A DNA stretch of 64,000 nt, taken from contig CAJKHY010000002.1 of NCBI GenBank assembly GCA_905199855.1, positions 8,571 to 72,570 on the forward strand, read 5' to 3'. The notes beneath the pieces are model-generated. The model did no database searches and was not told the origin of the DNA. It saw only the letters and a list, made by a program, of their open reading frames with translations. The position numbers were made by a program, and so were the translations under genes. This stretch comes from an uncultured Clostridium sp. GTDB taxonomy: Bacteria; Bacillota_I; Bacilli_A; RF39; UBA660. Positions 14,178-60,891 of the stretch are shown one piece after another (within the stretch, counting starts at the first letter, position 1; each line of letters starts with the position of its first letter).

Positions 14178-14699
14178 TTATATTATAACATTAGTAACAT
14201 CACTAAAATTTCTACATTTTTCTTCTAACAATGGAAAATTACAACATCTATCCTTTACATTTTTAGGTAATTTATTATTTTTATATAAACTGTATAATAA
14301 TTTTGATTTTTTGTTTATTTCTTTTCTATTAAGTGTTAACCAACGTAATTGATTTCTTAATAACTCAATTCTAAGCATTTCTTTTTTATCAGTAGTCCTC
14401 TTATTTAAGTCAAACTCAATATAATTTTTTGAAGTTACTGGAATCATATTATTAAAATTAACTACTCCATATACTCCATTATCTATCTTTACTAAATCCA
14501 AAGTATTTTTTAAAGACATATGTTTTGGCTTAGGGCTAGAAAGTGGAGCAAAATATTCACACTTGCCAACCATAAATAAAACTCCAATAAAAGGTCTCAA
14601 TTGTTTTTGCCCTGCATTATATGGTACTTTATTATCAAACAATCTTAAATAATCACAATAATTTGAATTTACTTTTACAATTTTAAATTTCTTATACAT
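14178..14699 (-). CDS. toxN: ToxN/AbiQ-family endoribonuclease (type III toxin-antitoxin toxin)
   Basis: 173 aa. MYKKFKIVKVNSNYCDYLRLFDNKVPYN...RPFIGVLFMVGKCEYFAPLSSPKPKH...CCNFPLLEEKCRNF aligns by eye with ToxN blocks: MKFYTI..YIEYLK.FDDKV, AFIGIV...YLAPLTSPK..H, C.F.VLEEKYRDF. The ribosome-binding site GGATGGTGA precedes the ATG at 14699. Confidence 0.8.
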   Translation of the reverse strand: MYKKFKIVKVNSNYCDYLRLFDNKVPYNAGQKQLRPFIGVLFMVGKCEYFAPLSSPKPKHMSLKNTLDLVKIDNGVYGVVNFNNMIPVTSKNYIEFDLNKRTTDKKEMLRIELLRNQLRWLTLNRKEINKKSKLLYSLYKNNKLPKNVKDRCCNFPLLEEKCRNFSDVTNVII

Positions 14700-14875: not shown

Positions 14876-14877
14876 AC

Positions 14878-14957
14878 TTTTTTAGCTGCCATTTATAGAG
14901 CTGGCTTCACTCGCTTTTTTAGCTGCCATTTATAGAGCTGGCTTCACTCGCTTTTTT
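14878..14957 (-). repeat. Tandem direct repeat, 37 nt x 2.2 copies; candidate ToxI-like RNA antitoxin
   Basis: Two identical units TTTTTTAGCTGCCATTTATAGAGCTGGCTTCACTCGC at 14878-14914 and 14915-14951, plus a third T6 start. Read on the toxN strand, each unit is GCGAGUGAAGCCAGCUCUAUAAAUGGCAGCU followed by A6. It lies immediately 5' of the terminator and toxN. Confidence 0.6.
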
Positions 14958-27586: not shown

Positions 27587-28555
27587 TTATTCAATATCTT
27601 TTGTAACAATTTTTGTAATTTCTTCATTTTCTACTAAAAATATAACCTCTTTAACATCATAATTTTCTTGTATAGACATACTTATTGTATATAATACCTC
27701 TTCTAAAATACTACTACCTGTAATATCACTTAAAATCATATTATTAAAATTTAACTTAATAGTATTATCATTTATTTCATAACTAAGTAACTTAGTACTA
27801 ACATTTAAAAAACTCATTAAATTACTCTCATATATTGGAGCACTAGTTAATTCCTCAATTATTATCTTAACCTTATCTTGATTAGTATTATTAATATACT
27901 TAGTAACTGGTACATAATAATAATTATCATTAAACTCACTTAAATAATATAGTGTATAACTATCTATATTCTTAGTATTACTAATATCATATACCTTATT
28001 AACACCATAATTCTTATCTAAAAACGTAGGAATATTCTTCTTACTATTAGGTAACTTAGTTAATGGTTTACCCTCTACATAAATAATTAACCCATTTATA
28101 CCATCTATACTAGTTAAAGTATAAGTAAGTGATTCTATCATCTTTTCCTCATATTTTTTATTAACATCTAAAATTTCCTTTGAAAAATCTATTTTTAATA
28201 TTTCATTTTCTAAAGATATATTCAATACCTTAGTCCCACTTGGAATAACACTCTTAAATCCATTTGGAATAATATCACTTTTTTTACCATCTATAGTTAA
28301 ACTCTCAATTAAATAAGAACTTTTTTCTACTAAATCGTCACATTTACAACCCCCTATATTAGTCTTAGATACATAATCATTACTATCTAATAAATAAATT
28401 ACCTCCAAGTTATTAGTATAAACATAATCTAATTTTTGATTGATATTAAGAGTTTTTTCTTCTTCCTTATTAGAAGGAATTAAATATATTAAAAGTAATA
28501 CAAACAAAGTTAAACTACTAATAATTATTTTCCTAATAGACATTTTCCTAAGCAT
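27587..28555 (-). CDS. Secreted/lipo-protein, possibly a GerM-like (GerMN-domain) sporulation/germination protein
   Basis: Signal anchor. 322 aa with two similar halves. It sits downstream of spoIIP and a small membrane protein, as in Bacillus gpr-spoIIP-yqxA neighbourhoods. Assignment is by architecture only. Confidence 0.35.
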   Translation of the reverse strand: MLRKMSIRKIIISSLTLFVLLLIYLIPSNKEEEKTLNINQKLDYVYTNNLEVIYLLDSNDYVSKTNIGGCKCDDLVEKSSYLIESLTIDGKKSDIIPNGFKSVIPSGTKVLNISLENEILKIDFSKEILDVNKKYEEKMIESLTYTLTSIDGINGLIIYVEGKPLTKLPNSKKNIPTFLDKNYGVNKVYDISNTKNIDSYTLYYLSEFNDNYYYVPVTKYINNTNQDKVKIIIEELTSAPIYESNLMSFLNVSTKLLSYEINDNTIKLNFNNMILSDITGSSILEEVLYTISMSIQENYDVKEVIFLVENEEITKIVTKDIE

Positions 28556-28590
28556 AATGCACCTCTTAATAAAATATATGAATTATTTTT

Positions 28591-28929
28591 TTATTTATTA
28601 TCTTTATCATCACTTACTAATTTATCTATTATCTTAAAGACCCCTTCAACCCCTTTCTTAAAATAAATATTTATCTTTTTACTAGTATTAAAACACGTAT
28701 TAGTAAGTTTATTCTTATAACTCTTTTCTGTACTCTCTAAATAATCAGTTATATCTAAATTCTTATTATTTTTAACATCATTTTCAAATTCCTTAATCTT
28801 CTCACTAGTTAAAACAGTTCTCTTCCTCACATGATATTCATAATAACCACTTTCACTAGCAAAAAAGATAAATATATATAAAACAAGTAAAATAATAAAA
28901 ATATCTTTGATTATTTTATTCTTATTCAT
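28591..28929 (-). CDS. Small membrane protein (YqxA-like position downstream of spoIIP)
   Basis: 112 aa, one N-terminal TM. It overlaps the spoIIP stop by 4 nt. Confidence 0.35.
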   Translation of the reverse strand: MNKNKIIKDIFIILLVLYIFIFFASESGYYEYHVRKRTVLTSEKIKEFENDVKNNKNLDITDYLESTEKSYKNKLTNTCFNTSKKINIYFKKGVEGVFKIIDKLVSDDKDNK

Positions 28930-29942
28930 ACTCCACCTACAAACTTAGTTAAAACATTAGATAAAACCTCTAAAGTATTATAAACTTCTTCTATCGTGTT
29001 ATCAACTCCTCCTATTTCAATTAAAATACAGTTCTTATCTACATCTTGATTATAAATACCATCTACCCCTTTACCACTCTTTTTATATATCCCTTTTGTT
29101 AATGAAGGATAAGTTTCTTTAATTAAATCATTTAATTTATTAGTTACCTCTAAATTATATTCATAGTTTTTATGTTCTAATCCCACAACAAAAAGTATTT
29201 TAGCATAATTCTTATTATTAATAGTTACTGTAGTACTATTCCTATTAACTGAATCCCTATGAATATCTATAAAATATTTTAAACTATCATACTTATTCAT
29301 TTTTTCTAATAGTAACATCCTAGTAGCCTTATATGAACTAGCATAATTCCAATGATTTAAATTTAAAAACTCACTTAAATTAGTATCCTCGACAATAGTA
29401 GATATCCCATTTTTATTTAATTTCTCTTTTAATATATAAGATGCCATCAAAACATTTGGAGTAATATTATATATACTTAAATTCTTATTATTATAATTTT
29501 CCAATTGATGTGTATTATATAAATATATTATTGGTTTACTAATATCTACTTTATAAGGATCCTCAATATATGAACTTATTTTTTTTAACTCTTCTAAATT
29601 ACTATAATCATCATTATGTTCTAAAGTAATACCATCATAATTATTTATTTTACTTACATAACTAGTAATAATACTACTTGGTTTAGTAACATCAACATGT
29701 GTAATAAAATTAATAGTAGAATTAACTACTTTAATTAACTTATTATTATATAAATTATTACTATTACCCATTCTTACTAAAGATTTAATAAAATTACTAT
29801 TATTAATATCCTTATTTCTTCTTAAAGAATAATAAAAAGAATATGAAAAACTAATATATATAATAGTTATTAAAAACATTATCCTTATTACTCTTAACTT
29901 TTTACTTTTTTTATTATTATTTTTAAGTCTCATTTTCCTCAT
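28926..29942 (-). CDS. spoIIP: Stage II sporulation protein P
   Basis: N-terminal TM. IIYLYNTHQLENY... DIHRDS ... ILFVVG are SpoIIP family hallmarks. Confidence 0.8.
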   Translation of the reverse strand: MRKMRLKNNNKKSKKLRVIRIMFLITIIYISFSYSFYYSLRRNKDINNSNFIKSLVRMGNSNNLYNNKLIKVVNSTINFITHVDVTKPSSIITSYVSKINNYDGITLEHNDDYSNLEELKKISSYIEDPYKVDISKPIIYLYNTHQLENYNNKNLSIYNITPNVLMASYILKEKLNKNGISTIVEDTNLSEFLNLNHWNYASSYKATRMLLLEKMNKYDSLKYFIDIHRDSVNRNSTTVTINNKNYAKILFVVGLEHKNYEYNLEVTNKLNDLIKETYPSLTKGIYKKSGKGVDGIYNQDVDKNCILIEIGGVDNTIEEVYNTLEVLSNVLTKFVGGV

Positions 29943-52958: not shown

Positions 52959-54752
52959 TTATTTTACAGAAAGAACAACACGAAAGCCTTGGTTAGGACT
53001 TGTATCAGTACCGTTATCCCAACCATAGAAAAAACTAAATATTCCTTTTTCTTCATCAGACATATATCTTCCTCCACGAGTAAACCAAGGATGATAGGAA
53101 TCAACAAATAAAGCTAAATCACTATACCAGCCTGCTGTCTCACCTAAAGCATCTCCTAGGTGGCTAGCACTTACACTAGTTCCTGAGTATATATCTATAT
53201 GCTCTGTTGGTACTGTACTTACTGTTAATCCTGATTTTCCTGCTGTTTTTTTATAATTTCCCATTACATTTTCAAATGCTCCACCACTCATATCATATAC
53301 TCCAAAAACAGTTCCTGTTGTTGATTGCAATGTATTAGTTATATAACTTGTACCAGAACCATCACCAGTAAGATAAGAACCATCCCCATTCGATGTTATT
53401 TCTGTTATTCCAAGTCCATAATTACTTTGCTTTAAATATGCTACTGCTCCCCATTCTATATTTTTTATCATATGAGAATCTGATTCATTTGCCCCTTTTG
53501 TAGTCAAATAATTTGTTGACCTAAATAATTTACCTGCACTATACATACTTGCTATTGTTATATCTCTTAATGATGTAATTCCAGGTTTTATTGTAGGAGT
53601 AGTTGTACTTCCTGTCGTTTCAAACTTTCCTACCCATATTCCTTTTAATTCTGTTTTATTACCACTTGCATTTATCATTGTAAATGCTGGATGTGTATAC
53701 CAATTCCCATTTGCTTTGTTTTGACATGTTTCTGCTCCATTAGATGCATATGTACATGTTACTGTTCCTGTAGTACTTGTACCACTTTCAAAAGTTACTT
53801 CAATTAATTGTTCTGTTGTACCACTTGCATATGTAGCATTAAATAATTTATATTTATATCTTGGTATCCATACATAATATGCTAAGATATCTGCTTCAGG
53901 TACTACAGTTCCAACATCTGCATTCATATATGTTTCTCTTTTAGTACTTGTTACCATAACTGCATTAGCCCATTTTTGATTACCATAATCATACCAATTA
54001 TTATATGCTCCATACTCATCAGCTTTTACCCATTTACTTCCATCATATGTAATTGGTATCATACCATCAGCTAATACTGGTCTATTTGCTCCAGAAGGAT
54101 CTTCTACTAAATCTTCAGTTTTACTAAGGCAATAATAATTCTTTTTACCATTTTCTATTTCTATTTTACAATTACTAGTATCTCCTATTTGTCCTTCACA
54201 ACTACTCTTTATATCACTAAGATTATAAGTATTAGTTATCTTAGTACCATTAGGATAATTATCTGTTCCATAGTTAATTGTATTACCTACATAACCTGTT
54301 ACTACTCCAATTACTACATCTATATCGTTATTAGAATTATTTGCTATTACTAAAGGTATAGTTTTTCTATTATCTTTATCTATATTACCACTTGTATTTA
54401 ATGCTGTTGTAGTAGTATTCTTGTCTTCTACTACTTCACCTATTATTACATCAGTTAAATCATTTGATGTATCATAATATATTTCATAATAGATAGTACC
54501 ATTACTAGAATTATTTACAATAAAGTTAAAACTAGCAACACTATTTTTACCTATATGAAAACTTTGTGTTCCTGATACATCAAAGGTATAATTTAACGTA
54601 GTATCCATATTAACAACATTACCTGAACTTACATTTGCGGTAAACATTGCATATGTATAATATAATCCTACTGATAATAATATAGCAATAATAGCACTTA
54701 ATACATATATATATTTAAGTGGTATTCTTTCTTTTAATTTTTTCATAATCAT
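52959..54752 (-). CDS. Membrane-anchored extracytoplasmic protein with C-terminal FGE-sulfatase (SUMF1/EgtB/PvdO-like) domain
   Basis: N-terminal signal anchor. The C-terminal blocks ...NIEWGAVAYL..., GVYDMSGGAFENVMG, FTRGGRYMS...GFRVVL match the conserved FGE-domain blocks (EWE, GlyDMsGNVwEW, RGGsw...GFR). The ribosome-binding site AATGGAGAA lies upstream. Confidence 0.55.
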   Translation of the reverse strand: MIMKKLKERIPLKYIYVLSAIIAILLSVGLYYTYAMFTANVSSGNVVNMDTTLNYTFDVSGTQSFHIGKNSVASFNFIVNNSSNGTIYYEIYYDTSNDLTDVIIGEVVEDKNTTTTALNTSGNIDKDNRKTIPLVIANNSNNDIDVVIGVVTGYVGNTINYGTDNYPNGTKITNTYNLSDIKSSCEGQIGDTSNCKIEIENGKKNYYCLSKTEDLVEDPSGANRPVLADGMIPITYDGSKWVKADEYGAYNNWYDYGNQKWANAVMVTSTKRETYMNADVGTVVPEADILAYYVWIPRYKYKLFNATYASGTTEQLIEVTFESGTSTTGTVTCTYASNGAETCQNKANGNWYTHPAFTMINASGNKTELKGIWVGKFETTGSTTTPTIKPGITSLRDITIASMYSAGKLFRSTNYLTTKGANESDSHMIKNIEWGAVAYLKQSNYGLGITEITSNGDGSYLTGDGSGTSYITNTLQSTTGTVFGVYDMSGGAFENVMGNYKKTAGKSGLTVSTVPTEHIDIYSGTSVSASHLGDALGETAGWYSDLALFVDSYHPWFTRGGRYMSDEEKGIFSFFYGWDNGTDTSPNQGFRVVLSVK

Positions 54753-55019: not shown

Positions 55020-56273
55020 TTATTCTTCTATTTCACAATTATTAATTTCTTCCTCTAAAGCCTTAATATTCTTAATATCCTGACTATGAATTATATCATG
55101 ACATTCCTTACATAATATCTCTATATTATCTTCTCTCTTACCACCATCAGCATATCTTTTTATATGATGATATTCAGGTTCATTATAAAACTCAAACTTC
55201 TTCTTACATCTTTCACAATAAGGATGCTTCTCAAACAATATAGATTTATCAGCCTCAGTAATTTGTCTAGCCACATCTAAATCTAAAACCTTATATTTTT
55301 TTAAAAATTCATCTACCAATAACTTTTGTCTTAAAGTAATTAAATTTTCACTCCATCCACCACGACTAATATCATAATATTTATTATAAATATAATTAGA
55401 ACGCCTAAAATCTTCATTATAAACATTATTAAAGAAATTAATACAAAACTTCCTAATATTATCTTCCTGTTGAGTCATTGCATAATATTTTCTAAGATAA
55501 CTCACCATAGTATATATTGACATAATCCTAGCATCTTTTTCTAAGCAAAAGTATTTACCACCACTAGGGAAACATTTTAATAAATAATTTAAATTCTCAT
55601 TAACAGTGTTATATATTTTACCATTAATTGACTCATTCTTATAATCATCAAAATATTTATATAAATACTCAGTAGAAGATTCTTTAGTTCCAAACTGCTC
55701 AAAATACATCATTTTAGCCACGATTGGATAAGTATTATATCTATTTTTATTAATGGAAATAACTTCGTCAACAAACTTATGCTTAGATAGTTTTCTCATT
55801 GTAAGAACAATATCTCCTGGTAAAGCATTTAATCTTTCACCTAAATTTAAAGGTTTACCTCTTTGTAACCTAGAAAAAATCATTCTAACCCTTTCATCAT
55901 CATAATCTGGTACAATATGAACTTTAAGATCATACCCTAAAAATTTATCTTGTAATTCCTCAGGAATACATTTATCTCCATTAAAAGTACAACCATCTAA
56001 TTTCTCACCTGAAAATTTACTACTTAACTTAATCTTATTATCATAAAATTTTCTAATACAATTTAATCTTTGTTGCCCGTCTACTATATAAAATACAGTA
56101 TCGCCATTTTCATCAGTCTTCGCATTAAAGAAAAACATTGGAATAGGTTCTTCTCTTAAAATAGTATCTATAAAACATTGATTATCTTGATTAGACCAAA
56201 CATCAACAGGTCTTTGATAATTATAATCAACCTTATATCTATTCTTTTTATTAATAAATTCTTGTATTGTCAT
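55020..56273 (-). CDS. DUF262 (ParB-like nuclease, DGQQR motif) - HNH nuclease fusion protein; GmrSD-like putative defense/type IV restriction enzyme
   Basis: N-terminal FYIVDGQQRLNCI is the DUF262 hallmark. C-terminal EYHHIKRYADGGKREDNIEILCKECHDIIH is an HNH. 417 aa. Confidence 0.7.
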   Translation of the reverse strand: MTIQEFINKKNRYKVDYNYQRPVDVWSNQDNQCFIDTILREEPIPMFFFNAKTDENGDTVFYIVDGQQRLNCIRKFYDNKIKLSSKFSGEKLDGCTFNGDKCIPEELQDKFLGYDLKVHIVPDYDDERVRMIFSRLQRGKPLNLGERLNALPGDIVLTMRKLSKHKFVDEVISINKNRYNTYPIVAKMMYFEQFGTKESSTEYLYKYFDDYKNESINGKIYNTVNENLNYLLKCFPSGGKYFCLEKDARIMSIYTMVSYLRKYYAMTQQEDNIRKFCINFFNNVYNEDFRRSNYIYNKYYDISRGGWSENLITLRQKLLVDEFLKKYKVLDLDVARQITEADKSILFEKHPYCERCKKKFEFYNEPEYHHIKRYADGGKREDNIEILCKECHDIIHSQDIKNIKALEEEINNCEIEE

Positions 56274-56290: not shown

Positions 56291-58201
56291 TTATTTTATT
56301 TTGTAACTATCTTCTAGTGAGAACTCAACGTTTTCTTCTATCCAAAGTTTTCTTGGTTCTACTGCATCACCCATTAAGACACTTACTCTTTTTTCCGCTA
56401 GAGCAGCATCGGTAATACCCACTTTAACAAGCATTCTGTTATTTGGATCCATTGTTGTTTCCCATAGTTGGGTAAAATTCATTTCACCTAATCCTTTATA
56501 TCTTTGAATAGTATAATTTTTCATGTTAGAAACTACTTTTCTTAGATCTTCGCCAGGATATACATAGGTAACTTTTTTCTTGTTTTCTTCTACTTTATAT
56601 AAAGGAGGCATTGCTATATATAAGTGTCCATTTTCAATAAGTGGTTTCATATACCTATAGAAAAATGTAAGTAGTAAGCATTGGATATGGGCTCCATCTT
56701 CATCAGCATCAGTCATGATAATAACCTTATCATAGTTACTATCTTTTATATTAAATTCATTGCCAATTCCAGCTCCTATGGTATGAATTAGGGTATTAAT
56801 TTCTTCATTTTTAAATATATCTTCTAGTTTGGCTTTCTCAGTATTAATAACTTTTCCCCTTAATGGTAATACTGCTTGGTATTTGCGATCTCTTCCTTGT
56901 TTAGCAGAACCACCAGCACTATCACCTTCGACTATAAATAGTTCGTTTTTACTTTTGTCTTTTCCTTGTGCAGGTGTTAGTTTACCACTTAATATTTTTT
57001 CTATTTTTTTGTTGTCTTTTCCTTTTCTTGTTTCTTCTCTTGCTTTTCTGGCTGCTTCTCTCGCTTCTTTACCTTTTAATGCTTTAGATATTATTTTGGT
57101 AGCAATGCTTTTATTTTCTTCTAAAAAATATTTTAATTTTTCTACGGTAATCGATTCTACTATACTTCTTGCTATTGGAGTACCTAGTTTGGCTTTGGTT
57201 TGCCCTTCAAACTGTAATAAGTCTTCTGGTATTTGAACACTTATAATCGCGGTTAAACCTTCTCTTACATCACTACCTTCAAATGTTTTATCTTTGCTTT
57301 TTAAGAAATTGTTTTCTTTGGCATAGTCATTTATTATTTTAGTAATCGCCGATTTGAATCCTACTTCATGGGTACCACCATCAGTGGTTTTAACATTATT
57401 GACAAAACTTATAATGTTTTCAGCATAACTATCTGTATATTGTAAAGCTACATCAACTTTAATTTTATCTCTAACACTAGAAAAACATAATACCTTATGT
57501 AAAACATCTTTTCCTTCGTTTAGATAATCACAGAATGCTGATAATCCATTTTCATAAACATATTTTTCTTCTCTATTATTAATTTCATCTATTATTTCAA
57601 TGATAAGACCATTTATTAGAAAAGCACATTCTTGCATTCTTTCACATATTGTTGAAAAACTAAAACTGGTCGTTTGGAATATTGTTGGATCTGGCCAAAA
57701 TCTTACTGTTGTTCCTGTGCCTCTGGCTTCACCTATTTTTCTTAATGTTTTGCTTACTTTGCCTCCATTTTCAAAAGCAATATAATATTCTCCTCCATCT
57801 TTTTTAGTTGTTACTTCCATTTTACTGCTTAACGCATTAACAACCGATGCTCCAACCCCATGCAAGCCCCCACTTACTTTGTATCCTCCATCACTAAATT
57901 TACCACCAGCATGGAGTACTGTATATATTACTTCGGGTGTACTTTTTCCTGAAGCATGCATTCCTACAGGGATACCTCTACCTTTATCAGTAACACTGAC
58001 AGAGCCATCTTTATGCATAATTATCTTAATACTGTTACCATATCCGTTTAATGCTTCATCTACGGCATTGTCAACAATTTCCCAGACTAGATGATGTAAT
58101 CCTCTTTTATCAGTGGAACCAATATACATACCAGGTCTTTTTCTAACAGCTTCAAGGCCTTCTAATATTTTAATTGAATTCTCATCATAATTTGATTTCA
58201 T
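56291..58201 (-). CDS. Type IIA DNA topoisomerase subunit B (GyrB or ParE; not distinguishable here)
   Basis: YDENSIKILEGLEAVRKRPGMYIGST... is a GHKL ATPase. The TOPRIM region EGDSAGGSAK is present. No A-subunit gene is adjacent. Confidence 0.88.
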   Translation of the reverse strand: MKSNYDENSIKILEGLEAVRKRPGMYIGSTDKRGLHHLVWEIVDNAVDEALNGYGNSIKIIMHKDGSVSVTDKGRGIPVGMHASGKSTPEVIYTVLHAGGKFSDGGYKVSGGLHGVGASVVNALSSKMEVTTKKDGGEYYIAFENGGKVSKTLRKIGEARGTGTTVRFWPDPTIFQTTSFSFSTICERMQECAFLINGLIIEIIDEINNREEKYVYENGLSAFCDYLNEGKDVLHKVLCFSSVRDKIKVDVALQYTDSYAENIISFVNNVKTTDGGTHEVGFKSAITKIINDYAKENNFLKSKDKTFEGSDVREGLTAIISVQIPEDLLQFEGQTKAKLGTPIARSIVESITVEKLKYFLEENKSIATKIISKALKGKEAREAARKAREETRKGKDNKKIEKILSGKLTPAQGKDKSKNELFIVEGDSAGGSAKQGRDRKYQAVLPLRGKVINTEKAKLEDIFKNEEINTLIHTIGAGIGNEFNIKDSNYDKVIIMTDADEDGAHIQCLLLTFFYRYMKPLIENGHLYIAMPPLYKVEENKKKVTYVYPGEDLRKVVSNMKNYTIQRYKGLGEMNFTQLWETTMDPNNRMLVKVGITDAALAEKRVSVLMGDAVEPRKLWIEENVEFSLEDSYKIK

Positions 58202-58210
58202 GTTTTCACC

Positions 58211-59194
58211 CTATTCTAATACTATATTTACATTTATTTTTTTTGTTTCACAGTTATACTCTAATTCAATTTCTTTGTCTAAATTTATATATTCATTGGT
58301 TTGGGGATTTTTTAATGAGCCTTTGAGGTAACCTTTATTTATTAAATCATTTAAAGTAATTGTTGTTTTATCATGGCATGTTTTAAATAAAGTGGTAATG
58401 TTATCAGTAGCATAATTTTTACTTGATAGTATAATGCTATTTTTTATTTTGTTAAGGTTTTCTTCTTTGCTTTTATCAATTAAACTACTTACGTTGGGCA
58501 CAAGCAAAATGGCAAGCATGCCTAATATTGAGATAACAATTAGTAATTCAATCAGTGTGAAGCCTTGGTTGTTTTTGTTATGTTTGGTAATATAATCTTT
58601 AACTGGTCCGTAGCTTCTTCGGTGTTCATTGATGATGCCATATTCTTCGATGGCTTTGATGTGTTTTTTTGTAGGATAACCTTTGTTGTTTTTAAAGTCA
58701 TACATTGGATATTTTTTGTCTAATTCATATAGCATTCTATCTCTAGTTACTTTGGCAATGACTGAAGCCGCAGCGATACTAATACTTAAAGCATCGCCTT
58801 TGATGATTGATGTTACTGGTATATCTAATTCTAAGGGCATGGCATCCACTAAAACATGTTCTAGTTTTATTTGTTTTCTTACGTTTTTAATTGCTTCTTT
58901 CATTGCTAGTTTGGTAGCTTCATAGATATTTATTTTATCAATTATGTCTTTGTCTATTATTCCAATTCCTATTGCAACAGCATGGTTCATAATGTAATCA
59001 TAATATATTTCTCTTTTTTTCTCACTTAATTTTTTTGAATCAGTTAATCCTTCTAAAACAAAATCTTTGGGTAATACAACGCAAGAGGCTACGACTGGGC
59101 CTACTAGAGGGCCTCTTCCTACTTCGTCAACACCTCCAATGAGAGAGATGTTACGACTATATAGTTCTTTTTCATATTTATATAAATCAACCAT
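58211..59194 (-). CDS. rnhB: Ribonuclease HII with an in-frame C-terminal ComGC-like type IV (pseudo)pilin domain
   Basis: Residues 1-~213 are the RNase HII family (GGVDEVGRGPLVGPV...). Residues ~214-327 begin QGFTLIELLIVISILGMLAILLVPNV, the prepilin peptidase G|FTLIE motif with a hydrophobic helix. There is no stop codon and no ATG/GTG/TTG start between the two parts. Confidence 0.7.
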   Translation of the reverse strand: MVDLYKYEKELYSRNISLIGGVDEVGRGPLVGPVVASCVVLPKDFVLEGLTDSKKLSEKKREIYYDYIMNHAVAIGIGIIDKDIIDKINIYEATKLAMKEAIKNVRKQIKLEHVLVDAMPLELDIPVTSIIKGDALSISIAAASVIAKVTRDRMLYELDKKYPMYDFKNNKGYPTKKHIKAIEEYGIINEHRRSYGPVKDYITKHNKNNQGFTLIELLIVISILGMLAILLVPNVSSLIDKSKEENLNKIKNSIILSSKNYATDNITTLFKTCHDKTTITLNDLINKGYLKGSLKNPQTNEYINLDKEIELEYNCETKKINVNIVLE

Positions 59195-59197
59195 ATC

Positions 59198-59494
59198 TTA
59201 CTTCCTAAAATTATTTATTATGGAGTTTATTTTGTTGTTTCTATTTATTTCTTTATTACCTTGTATTTGTCTATTTAAGTTATTTACTTTGTCTTCTTTT
59301 GTTTCTTTTTTGTTATTAAAATTAGTGTAACTACCAAACATTTTGTTATTAATTCTGTTCATTGCTTCTTTATAATCACTTACTTGTTTAGTATTATGAT
59401 TAGCTTTCCAGCGATCATTGAATATATCAAGTGTGTCTCTGTTGCGATTAAAACCAAGTGCCATATTATCACATCCTGAAACTAATTTTAGCAA
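59198..59494 (-). CDS. Hypothetical Asn/Lys-rich protein
   Basis: 98-aa ORF immediately upstream of rnhB on the same strand. Confidence 0.3.
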   Translation of the reverse strand: MLKLVSGCDNMALGFNRNRDTLDIFNDRWKANHNTKQVSDYKEAMNRINNKMFGSYTNFNNKKETKEDKVNNLNRQIQGNKEINRNNKINSIINNFRK

Positions 59495-59548: not shown

Positions 59549-60826
59549 TTATACTAATTTTGCAATGACTGTGTTTTTATCTACTACTTTATCTATTTTA
59601 ACTTTTATAATCTTGTTAGTATCATATTTGCCTTTGATATGGACAAGTATATAATTACTAGTAAATCCTTGGGTATAATCTTTTTTGTAACTTTCAGTAA
59701 TAATTTCTTCTTCTTTGTTTAGCATGCTTTTGTAAAATTCTAATTCATTCTCATTGGATAACTCAATTACTTTTCTAGTACGTATTTTTTTAGTTTCTGG
59801 AGATACTTGATTATCCATGATACTAGCTTTGGTTCCTGCTCTTTTAGAATAAGGAAAAACATGTATTTTACTAAATTTAATTTTATTTAAGAAGTTGATT
59901 GTTTCATTAAATAGATTGTCATCTTCATGGGGAAAACCTACAATTAAATCGGTAGTGATAGAAATATCTAAAATATTTTTTCTAATATAGTTTATTCTAT
60001 CAAAAAAATACTTGGTATCATATTTTCTTTCCATTAGTTTGAGTATTTTATCACTTCCACTTTGAAGTGGAATATGTAAATGATGGGCAATAATATTACT
60101 ATTTTTCATTATTTCAATTATTCCATTAGTAATCTCATTTATTTCAATTGAAGATATTCTTAAGCGATATAAATTAGGTATTTTTATTAATTTTTTGAGA
60201 AGGTTTTCTAAATTAGTATTAATATCACGACCATATTTACCTGTATGAATACCTGTTAAAACTATTTCTTTATAGCCACGATTAACTAAGTTTGTTACTT
60301 CTTCGATAACTAAATTTTCATTTTTACTTCTTATGTTTCCACGGCTGTAGGGAATAATGCAATATGCACAGAAGGCATCACATCCATCTTGTATTTTGAC
60401 AAATGCTCTTGTATGAGAATTAAAATCATTAATCTCCATAACCTCGAATGATTCGTTGGTTAAATCGTATATTTTTTTTATTTCTTTTTTATTTTTTATA
60501 TATTCTTCTAATAATTCTACTATTTTACTTTTATCTTTGTTACCAATTATGATATCAGCGTCAATGCTATTTCCTTTTATTTGAGAATGACACCCCATAA
60601 CTACTACAATGGCATCTTTATTTTTTCTTGCTTGTCTAATCATTTTTTCACTTTTATTATCCGCCGTATTTGTAACTGTGCAGGTGTTTATGATATAAAT
60701 GTCTGCGAGAGAATTAAATGGTACTATTTCGTAACCATTTTCTTTTAATTTTGATATAACGTATTCGCTTTCATAAATATTAACTTTGCAACCTAAACTG
60801 CATATTGCTACTTTCACTAAAATCAC
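59549..60826 (-). CDS. Radical-SAM methylthiotransferase, MiaB-like (MtaB/YqeV type)
   Basis: N-terminal CSLGCKVN cysteine triad. The radical-SAM motif is CDAFCAYC. A TRAM-like C-terminus is present. 425 aa. Confidence 0.8.
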   Translation of the reverse strand: MILVKVAICSLGCKVNIYESEYVISKLKENGYEIVPFNSLADIYIINTCTVTNTADNKSEKMIRQARKNKDAIVVVMGCHSQIKGNSIDADIIIGNKDKSKIVELLEEYIKNKKEIKKIYDLTNESFEVMEINDFNSHTRAFVKIQDGCDAFCAYCIIPYSRGNIRSKNENLVIEEVTNLVNRGYKEIVLTGIHTGKYGRDINTNLENLLKKLIKIPNLYRLRISSIEINEITNGIIEIMKNSNIIAHHLHIPLQSGSDKILKLMERKYDTKYFFDRINYIRKNILDISITTDLIVGFPHEDDNLFNETINFLNKIKFSKIHVFPYSKRAGTKASIMDNQVSPETKKIRTRKVIELSNENELEFYKSMLNKEEEIITESYKKDYTQGFTSNYILVHIKGKYDTNKIIKVKIDKVVDKNTVIAKLV

Positions 60827-60891
60827 TTCCTTGTGAGTAATATTATAGCAGATTAAAGAAAAAAAAGGAAGTTTTCTTCCTTTAATTTTTA

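Follow-up and report, generated by a model that had tools for sequence, protein, structure and literature searches.

In-frame fusion of ribonuclease HII to a type IV pilin in an uncultured gut Bacillota

INTRODUCTION

Prepilin peptidase cuts type IV prepilins at the cytoplasmic face and needs essentially only a Gly at position -1, and prepilins that escape processing are not assembled into filaments (PMC10191384, PMC4471445). Pilin prediction and genome annotation both assume that the leader removed in this step is a peptide of 6–26 residues at the N-terminus of the protein. Here we describe a gene in which 211 residues, nearly all of them belonging to ribonuclease HII (RNase HII, encoded by rnhB), precede the predicted cleavage site of a small pilin. 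The gene lies in a 64 000-nt stretch of contig CAJKHY010000002.1 (assembly GCA_905199855.1, positions 8571–72 570 of the forward strand) from an uncultured Clostridium sp.; this whole stretch is called the window below, and coordinates refer to it. The parts of the fusion are ordinary, and its architecture is not.

Three described systems come nearest. Modular type IV pilins, such as PilB of Streptococcus sanguinis (PMC8179133) and the many homologues of the present pilin that have 200–1137 residues, also have a pilin module joined covalently to another module. In modular pilins, however, the additional module is the C-terminal, extracellular one, which remains attached and which the filament displays, whereas in the present fusion it is N-terminal and cytoplasmic, is a housekeeping enzyme and stands upstream of the cleavage site. 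The type IVb pilins and the long-leader pilins of S. sanguinis (15–30 residues; PMC4471445, PMC10191384) share with it a hydrophilic, positively charged cytoplasmic segment before Gly-1 that is removed by the peptidase, a step that for our protein is predicted. Their leaders (6–26, and up to ~30, residues) are unstructured, while ours has 211 residues and would be a folded enzyme. The pseudopilin GspG of the mitochondrial type II secretion system, found in Naegleria and other protists, is complete, with its processing site and Glu+5, and has a long N-terminal extension (~160 residues in NgGspG1; PMC8134430), but that extension is a mitochondrial targeting sequence and not an enzyme, the system has no GspO homologue, and it is eukaryotic. 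A folded cytoplasmic enzyme upstream of a prepilin cleavage site thus occurs in none of the nearest described systems, and a full-text literature search found no report of an RNase HII–prepilin fusion.

RESULTS

The fused reading frame

The open reading frame (ORF) occupies 58211..59194 on the minus strand, with an ATG start, 327 codons and a stop codon at 58211–58213. Residues 1–205 (58580..59194, minus strand) form an RNase HII domain. Pfam RNase_HII (PF01351) matches residues 21–195 (E = 1.6e-36; 126.5 bits, cut-off 25.8), the NCBIfam equivalog NF000594 for RNase HII matches residues 3–200 (293.2 bits, cut-off 243), and a profile search with the N-terminal part matched RNase HII chains in the PDB at 1.8e-49. 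D23, E24, D117, D134, the GRG motif G26-R27-G28 and Y173 are all present, and are nearly invariant in an alignment of 24 sequences. From the Thermotoga RNase HII structures, we take the four acidic residues to be the catalytic DEDD set and the GRG motif and the Tyr to serve junction recognition. By these domain and residue criteria the RNase HII half is intact; its fold ends at about residue 205–209.

The pilin half begins almost at once. Residues 212–233 (58496..58561, minus strand; FTLIELLIVISILGMLAILLVP) are a hydrophobic alpha1N or transmembrane segment, recognized by Pfam N_methyl (PF07963; residues 207–231, 35.7 bits against 21.2), by TIGR02532 (IV_pilin_GFxxxE; 27.9 bits against 16.3) and by hydropathy, being the sole strongly hydrophobic segment of the 327-residue protein (peak 2.97). 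It opens with a class III signal: cleavage is predicted between G211 and F212, after TKHNKNNQ-G211 and before F212-TLIE216, and the segment runs on to P233, so that Gly-1, Phe+1, Glu+5, Gly+14 and Pro+22 are all in place. The codon of G211, the -1 residue of the predicted prepilin peptidase site, is 58564–58562. The remaining residues, 234–327 (58214..58495, minus strand), comprise, according to AF2 models and alignment, the rest of alpha1 and a small beta-sheet head with a pair of cysteines, C273 and C315.

A preliminary description of this DNA, made from its letters alone, had reported an in-frame RNase HII–type IV (pseudo)pilin fusion with a textbook G/FTLIE site (the slash marks the cut) and no alternative start codon. 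The domain matches above their cut-offs bear out the first point, although the glycine lies two residues before the position of about 213 given there. The second holds as well: the in-frame codons between M164 and G211 include no ATG, GTG or TTG, and no Shine-Dalgarno sequence precedes G211. With 211 residues upstream of the cleavage site the protein lacks the short N-terminal leader by which type IV pilins are recognized, and the pilin has gone unrecognized in annotation because NCBI names the protein 'ribonuclease HII' only. The locus is one ORF with one possible translation product, in which the enzyme and the class III signal are both intact and the head is conserved.

In the stretch from M164 to G211 the sole conceivable start is an ATT at I202. 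Initiation there would give a leader of 10 residues, (M)TKHNKNNQG, and the pilin would then be translated separately, the fusion existing at the level of annotation only. The same would follow from frameshifting or slippage at the A-rich run of the junction, which contains CAAAAAC; both alternative frames stop within 8–9 codons, and a shift could give unfused RNase HII. We regard separate translation as very improbable. The ATT has no Shine-Dalgarno sequence, and I202 occupies a site in the tail of RNase HII that is conserved as I, V or L. The fit of C AAA AAC to the slippery heptamer X XXY YYZ is imperfect, and one group of alleles, the L007 type (AGCAATAAAAGTAAA), has no A run. Frameshifting, moreover, could yield free RNase HII but never free pilin. 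Programmed frameshifting at the A run and the ATT start, neither of them conserved, were accordingly rejected.

Class and structure of the pilin

The pilin half had been called ComGC-like. It scores 31–32 bits with the NCBIfam ComGC model (NF040999), against a cut-off of 75, and 34–38 bits with GspG (TIGR01710), against a cut-off of 88.85; there is a weak likeness to GspG in the head motif, (G)YL...(K)NP/DP. No ComGC structure was among the matches of a PDB profile search, and the neighbors (mtaB, a small ORF, parE and GmrSD) provide no comGA-GG or gsp operon context. We have dropped the ComGC label on these three grounds (32 against 75 bits, PDB matches and gene context).

The matches that the PDB search did return, at 1e-18 to 1e-12, were to the alpha1 helices of geopilin, PilA, PilE and GspG, and such matches to solved pilins cover mainly alpha1. 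Modeled alone with AF2, the pilin part has the lollipop shape of a helix (8–58) followed by 3–4 strands, at a mean confidence (pLDDT) of 87. The top match of this model in a Foldseek comparison with the PDB was full-length PAK pilin, which was not significant (E = 0.53, TM 0.36). The low ComGC and GspG scores, the PDB matches, mainly to alpha1, and the modeled fold together lead us to class it as a small, generic T4a/GspG-like pilin. It resembles the ComGC and GspG major (pseudo)pilins in its mature length (~115 residues) and in its T4a-type alpha1N helix with E5, G14 and P22, but falls far below both NCBIfam equivalog cut-offs and lacks their operons.

The fusion in independent assemblies

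At least 11 contigs from different samples, in SPAdes, MEGAHIT and Logan assemblies, encode an identical 327-residue protein. Fused alleles 94–97% identical to it occur in further metagenomes and on the reference scaffold HF996827.1 of Clostridium sp. CAG:762. By cluster look-up, individual 327-residue variants are present on 153, 109, 88, 47 and 46 contigs, several hundred contigs altogether, and one contig that carries such a variant is 1.38 Mb long. The shorter members of the cluster are a few singleton contigs that are frameshifted, chimeric or truncated at a contig end.

An assembly frameshift was one of the alternatives put forward in the preliminary description. A homopolymer indel, arising in sequencing or assembly, would falsely link two genes, and the junction does lie in an A-rich stretch at which a sister species, described below, differs by a net 1 nt. 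Yet the same ORF has been recovered by different projects and assemblers, in a reference genome and on the 1.38-Mb contig, and alleles with very different junction sequences are fused without exception. The ATG and Shine-Dalgarno sequence of the pilin have been lost too, and no single indel error could produce that. The artefact is refuted for practical purposes. The fusion is genuine and is found throughout one species of uncultured low-GC (27%) Bacillota of the human gut, Clostridium sp. CAG:762 with its close relatives.

Two singleton contigs (P0005 and P0168) have a foreign N-terminus in place of RNase HII residues 1 to 75–100, with the rest of the enzyme and the pilin in frame. One of these N-termini is FabV-like (MRGFICTTSHPEGC) and the other is unrelated to it; they may be chimeric assemblies or insertions.

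Origin of the fusion

The sister species has the two halves as separate genes. Its rnhB encodes 208 residues, ending in GVNHE and a stop codon, and overlaps by 8 nt (ATGAATAA) a pilin gene of 122 codons, whose product starts MNNKG/FTLTELLVVILILGML and so has a leader of 5 residues (MNNKG/FTLTE). This arrangement was recovered from three independent sequencing runs (P0006 and P0170; loci L011, L012 and L098). The RNase HII is 80% identical to that of the window and the pilin 63% identical (76 of 121 residues). Fused and unfused pilins have in common the Cys pair, the G/FTL.E site and the head motif YL..S.KNP.T, and the gene order mtaB–small ORF–rnhB–pilin–parE is shared by the sister species and the window.

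DNA alignment of the two forms reveals how they differ. Between the anchors GGACCAGTTAAA and GGnTTy there are 34 nt in the unfused and 33 nt in the fused form, and this net loss of 1 nt in the tail of rnhB brings the rnhB frame into that of the pilin. The former ATG of the pilin aligns with AAA (K207, at 58576–58574) and its GAAGGTG Shine-Dalgarno sequence is gone; the pilin can therefore be made only as the C-terminal part of RNase HII. On the same alignment, KNNQG (residues 207–211; 58562..58576, minus strand) is what remains of the MNNKG leader. The comparison shows that the ancestor had a small orphan gene for a type IV pilin behind rnhB, its start overlapping the rnhB stop by 8 nt. The preliminary description had reasoned that the fusion would be called into doubt by relatives having rnhB without the extension and a degraded pilin-like part. 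Relatives do have rnhB without the extension; in the closest of them, however, the pilin is a separate, well-conserved gene immediately downstream, an arrangement that explains the fusion and does not refute it.

An HMMER scan of 1.84 billion representative proteins with the pilin part found 6477 homologues at E <= 1e-3, and in all 150 of the 150 best of these the pilin domain starts at residue 2–25. In a more distant relative (L099/L100, 6005–8377) a stand-alone pilin, 46% identical, lies upstream of parE in the order ytxH–pilin–parE, with a convergent RNase HIII gene. Because of the N-terminal position in the best homologues and this separate copy upstream of parE, the stand-alone pilin is, as read from the sequences, the ancestral state. 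Since in that relative the pilin sits between ytxH and parE, its adjacency to parE predates its adjacency to rnhB, and the orphan pilin therefore travels with parE and not with rnhB. Other homologues adjoin sepF (L103, L104). The synteny of rnhB itself is not kept beyond the immediate lineage, as judged from representatives of 79 other species retrieved with an rnhB query.

A metagenome scan with the pilin alignment returned the same species again and one unrelated contig, L097, on which PilD stands beside a weakly similar pilin.

Selection on the pilin half

We compared four fused alleles (those of the window, L007, L009 and L013) in six pairs, with synonymous divergence (dS) up to ~0.45. Over pilin residues 214–327 the ratio of nonsynonymous to synonymous differences (pN/pS) was 0.08–0.21 in all six pairs, and neutrality was rejected (p = 7.5e-4 to 4e-7); for the rnhB part the ratio was 0.03–0.17. 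There is no stop or frameshift in 117 pilin codons across the fused alleles. Fused against unfused pilin gave an omega of 0.165, and both Cys (C273 and C315) are invariant between the two forms. In the 120-nt bin holding the junction, L007-type alleles and the window differ by 24%, and yet the frame, G-1, F+1 and E+5 are kept. Both halves have been under purifying selection since the fusion.

These data bear on another alternative of the preliminary description, that of a decaying remnant. The pilin half would have been recently inactivated and would now be in the course of loss, with RNase HII the only part that matters. Its start codon and ribosome-binding site are indeed gone, one contig (L010, described in the next section) has lost the helix and most of the head by an in-frame deletion, a few singleton contigs are frameshifted or chimeric, and the fusion is confined to one lineage. 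Against decay stand the pN/pS values, with neutrality rejected at p <= 7.5e-4 in six of six pairs, the conserved Cys pair and the reading frame, free of stops and frameshifts throughout. The full 327-residue form also predominates across the several hundred contigs, while the deletion allele is a single 2.3-kb scaffold. We therefore rate decay as improbable, and on balance the pilin half is constrained, not decaying.

Proposed processing of the precursor

Our preferred reading, to which we give a probability of about 0.5, is that the protein is a self-resolving precursor, cut by prepilin peptidase between G211 and F212, the products being an RNase HII close to its native form and a normal mature pilin. 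A cleavable precursor is the most economical explanation because the pilin is under selection and yet would be usable as a pilin only if cleaved. A single precursor would be translated and its RNase HII part would fold in the cytoplasm. Residues 212–233 would insert as an N-in/C-out signal anchor, via the signal recognition particle and Sec, with export of the head; the flanking KHNK residues fit the positive-inside rule. The prepilin peptidase of the cell would then cut after G211 at the cytoplasmic face, leaving an RNase HII with the tail KHNKNNQG and a mature pilin that begins with FTLIE. With cleavage the fusion would be neutral in function, and this would account for its fixation. With slightly less confidence than we place in the cut itself, the 211-residue RNase HII may be viewed as the pilin 'leader', and the prepilin peptidase as a polyprotein-processing protease that frees the enzyme to the cytoplasm and the pilin to the membrane.

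The AF2 model of the full-length protein has a pLDDT of ~90 up to about residue 205 and below 50 at residues 209–212. The low values at the junction are compatible with an exposed linker.

The protein might instead stay whole, in which case the former pilin helix would anchor RNase HII to the inner surface of the membrane, with the head outside as a passive or re-purposed ectodomain, and no filament would be formed. The topology of a cytoplasmic enzyme, an N-in anchor and an exported head is plausible without cleavage. The C-terminal helix of RNase HII is predicted to end two residues before G211, known leaders do not exceed 26 residues, and neither in the window nor linked to the genome was a prepilin peptidase or pilus machinery found. 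A passive anchor would nevertheless give little reason for the head, the Cys pair, G-1 and E+5 to be conserved (pN/pS ~0.15, in diverged fused alleles). The sister species, moreover, has the same pilin as a normal stand-alone prepilin, so this lineage evidently uses it as a pilin, and relatives in the clade possess PilB-like ATPases and minor pilins that are highly conserved. An uncleaved protein thus seems unlikely to us, if far from negligible.

Those ATPases belong to gut Bacilli of the CAG:302 type, in which genes for a PilB/GspE-like ATPase and for two minor-pilin-like proteins (motifs KGFMLAE and RGYMTVE) adjoin rnhB or uvrC (loci L054, 6651–9182; L047; L061; and L106, 8931–11305). The ATPase family is highly conserved across the clade, the 120 top database clusters being at least 79% identical. 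The locus of an abundant homologue comprises the ATPase, two minor pilins and uvrC, with no peptidase.

Several observations weigh against a cleaved precursor. Described leader peptides have 6–26 residues (PMC4471445), and in the AF2 model the last RNase HII helix ends two residues before the scissile bond; a folded 23-kDa domain so near to it might block the peptidase. A Pfam scan of 62 window ORFs found no T2SSE, T2SSF or peptidase A24, and the 64-kb window and its flanks yielded neither a prepilin peptidase nor an assembly ATPase, a platform protein or a second pilin. The same scan and a relaxed motif search, which disclosed no second prepilin motif in the window, agree with the preliminary description, in which no other com or pilus genes had been seen. 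A search with the CAG:302-type ATPase gave no PilB-like match assignable to the fusion species, the family being too conserved for its copy to be singled out, and the peptidase A24 pattern 'GxGDxK', run as a regular expression over ~1 Mb of fetched loci, matched only in L097. The fusion, for which relatives were to be searched, is present in the 94–97% identical alleles including CAG:762, but neither it nor the rnhB–pilin pair occurs in any of the 79 other species representatives, so that it is limited to one species-level lineage.

Two further points touch the evidence for selection. A recombination tract (window ~56300–58430, in comparison with L013 and L009) begins halfway along the pilin head and extends across the entire parE gene, with 7–13% nucleotide divergence between flanks that are nearly identical (0–2%). 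Its donor could have been an unfused lineage, which would weaken the case for selection since the fusion in that segment. The other is the 2.3-kb scaffold L010, in which an in-frame deletion of 231 nt (683–720; window ~58330–58562), with AAG microhomology at the breakpoint, has taken out the helix together with most of the head, so that RNase HII ends in a 40-residue tail. The pilin part may on this showing be dispensable; the deletion could be genuine, as a minority allele, or come from misassembly. Pilin-specific hypervariability had been considered and was rejected, since the divergent block with respect to L013 spans the middle of the pilin and all of parE and is the recombination tract.

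If the precursor is cleaved, its class III leader would exceed all known ones in length by a wide margin and would be the first to be folded, and prepilin peptidases would be shown to cope with a globular domain that lies a few residues away from the cut. It would amount to a natural experiment in which insertion and cleavage of an internal signal anchor work with a 23-kDa folded domain as leader, and would bear on substrate recognition by the peptidase, which is still poorly understood (PMC10191384). Prepilin sites could then act as self-resolving linkers in vivo. If it is not cleaved, the result would be a membrane-tethered RNase HII, odd for an enzyme of chromosome repair. Either way, the locus is a clean and datable case in which overlapping, translationally coupled genes fused by a 1-nt change and the fusion was tolerated. 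The reach of the finding is limited: it concerns a single uncultured gut species, the mutation behind it is trivial, and nothing points to a wider family of such fusions.

Gene neighborhood

The fused gene is the third of a string on the minus strand. Its first gene is an MtaB/MiaB-like radical-SAM methylthiotransferase (mtaB, 59549..60826), upstream of which is a terminator-like hairpin (60864–60883). A small conserved ORF follows (59198..59494; 88–98 residues, no Pfam match), which has its stop 4 nt before the rnhB start and is also found upstream of rnhB in relatives. Beyond the fusion, parE (topoisomerase IV subunit B, 636 residues; 56291..58201, with Pfam HATPase_c, DNA_gyraseB, Toprim and GyrB_C) starts 9 nt after the fusion stop. 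The mtaB–orf–rnhB::pilin–parE string, with its gaps of 4 and 9 nt, suggests modest constitutive expression and a minor pilin rather than a major filament subunit, low abundance being expected because the pilin would be co-transcribed with housekeeping genes.

Directly downstream of parE, and part of the same string, is a restriction-type endonuclease with GmrSD_N and HNH domains (55020..56273, minus strand), which is 99% conserved in L001, L009 and L013. What comes after it varies. The window has a 597-residue ORF without a Pfam match (52959..54752, minus strand), and L001 (14449–16791) has ORFs of 300 and 422 residues and then the S10 ribosomal operon. This difference between strains points to a variable island or a rearrangement.

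Other features of the window

A ToxN-family toxin gene (PF13958, E = 6e-45; 14178..14699, minus strand) lies between LemA and holA, and ~180 nt upstream of it is a perfect 37-nt tandem repeat (2.2 copies, 14877..14957). Together they look like a type III toxin–antitoxin (ToxIN-like) locus with a short array of ToxI-type RNA. The window also has the sporulation genes GerM (Germane) and SpoIIP (27587..29942, minus strand), as well as FtsW and a polysaccharide deacetylase. This 27%-GC organism, which NCBI labels variously as Clostridium, Tenericutes and Bacilli, thus retains sporulation-type genes and a cell wall.

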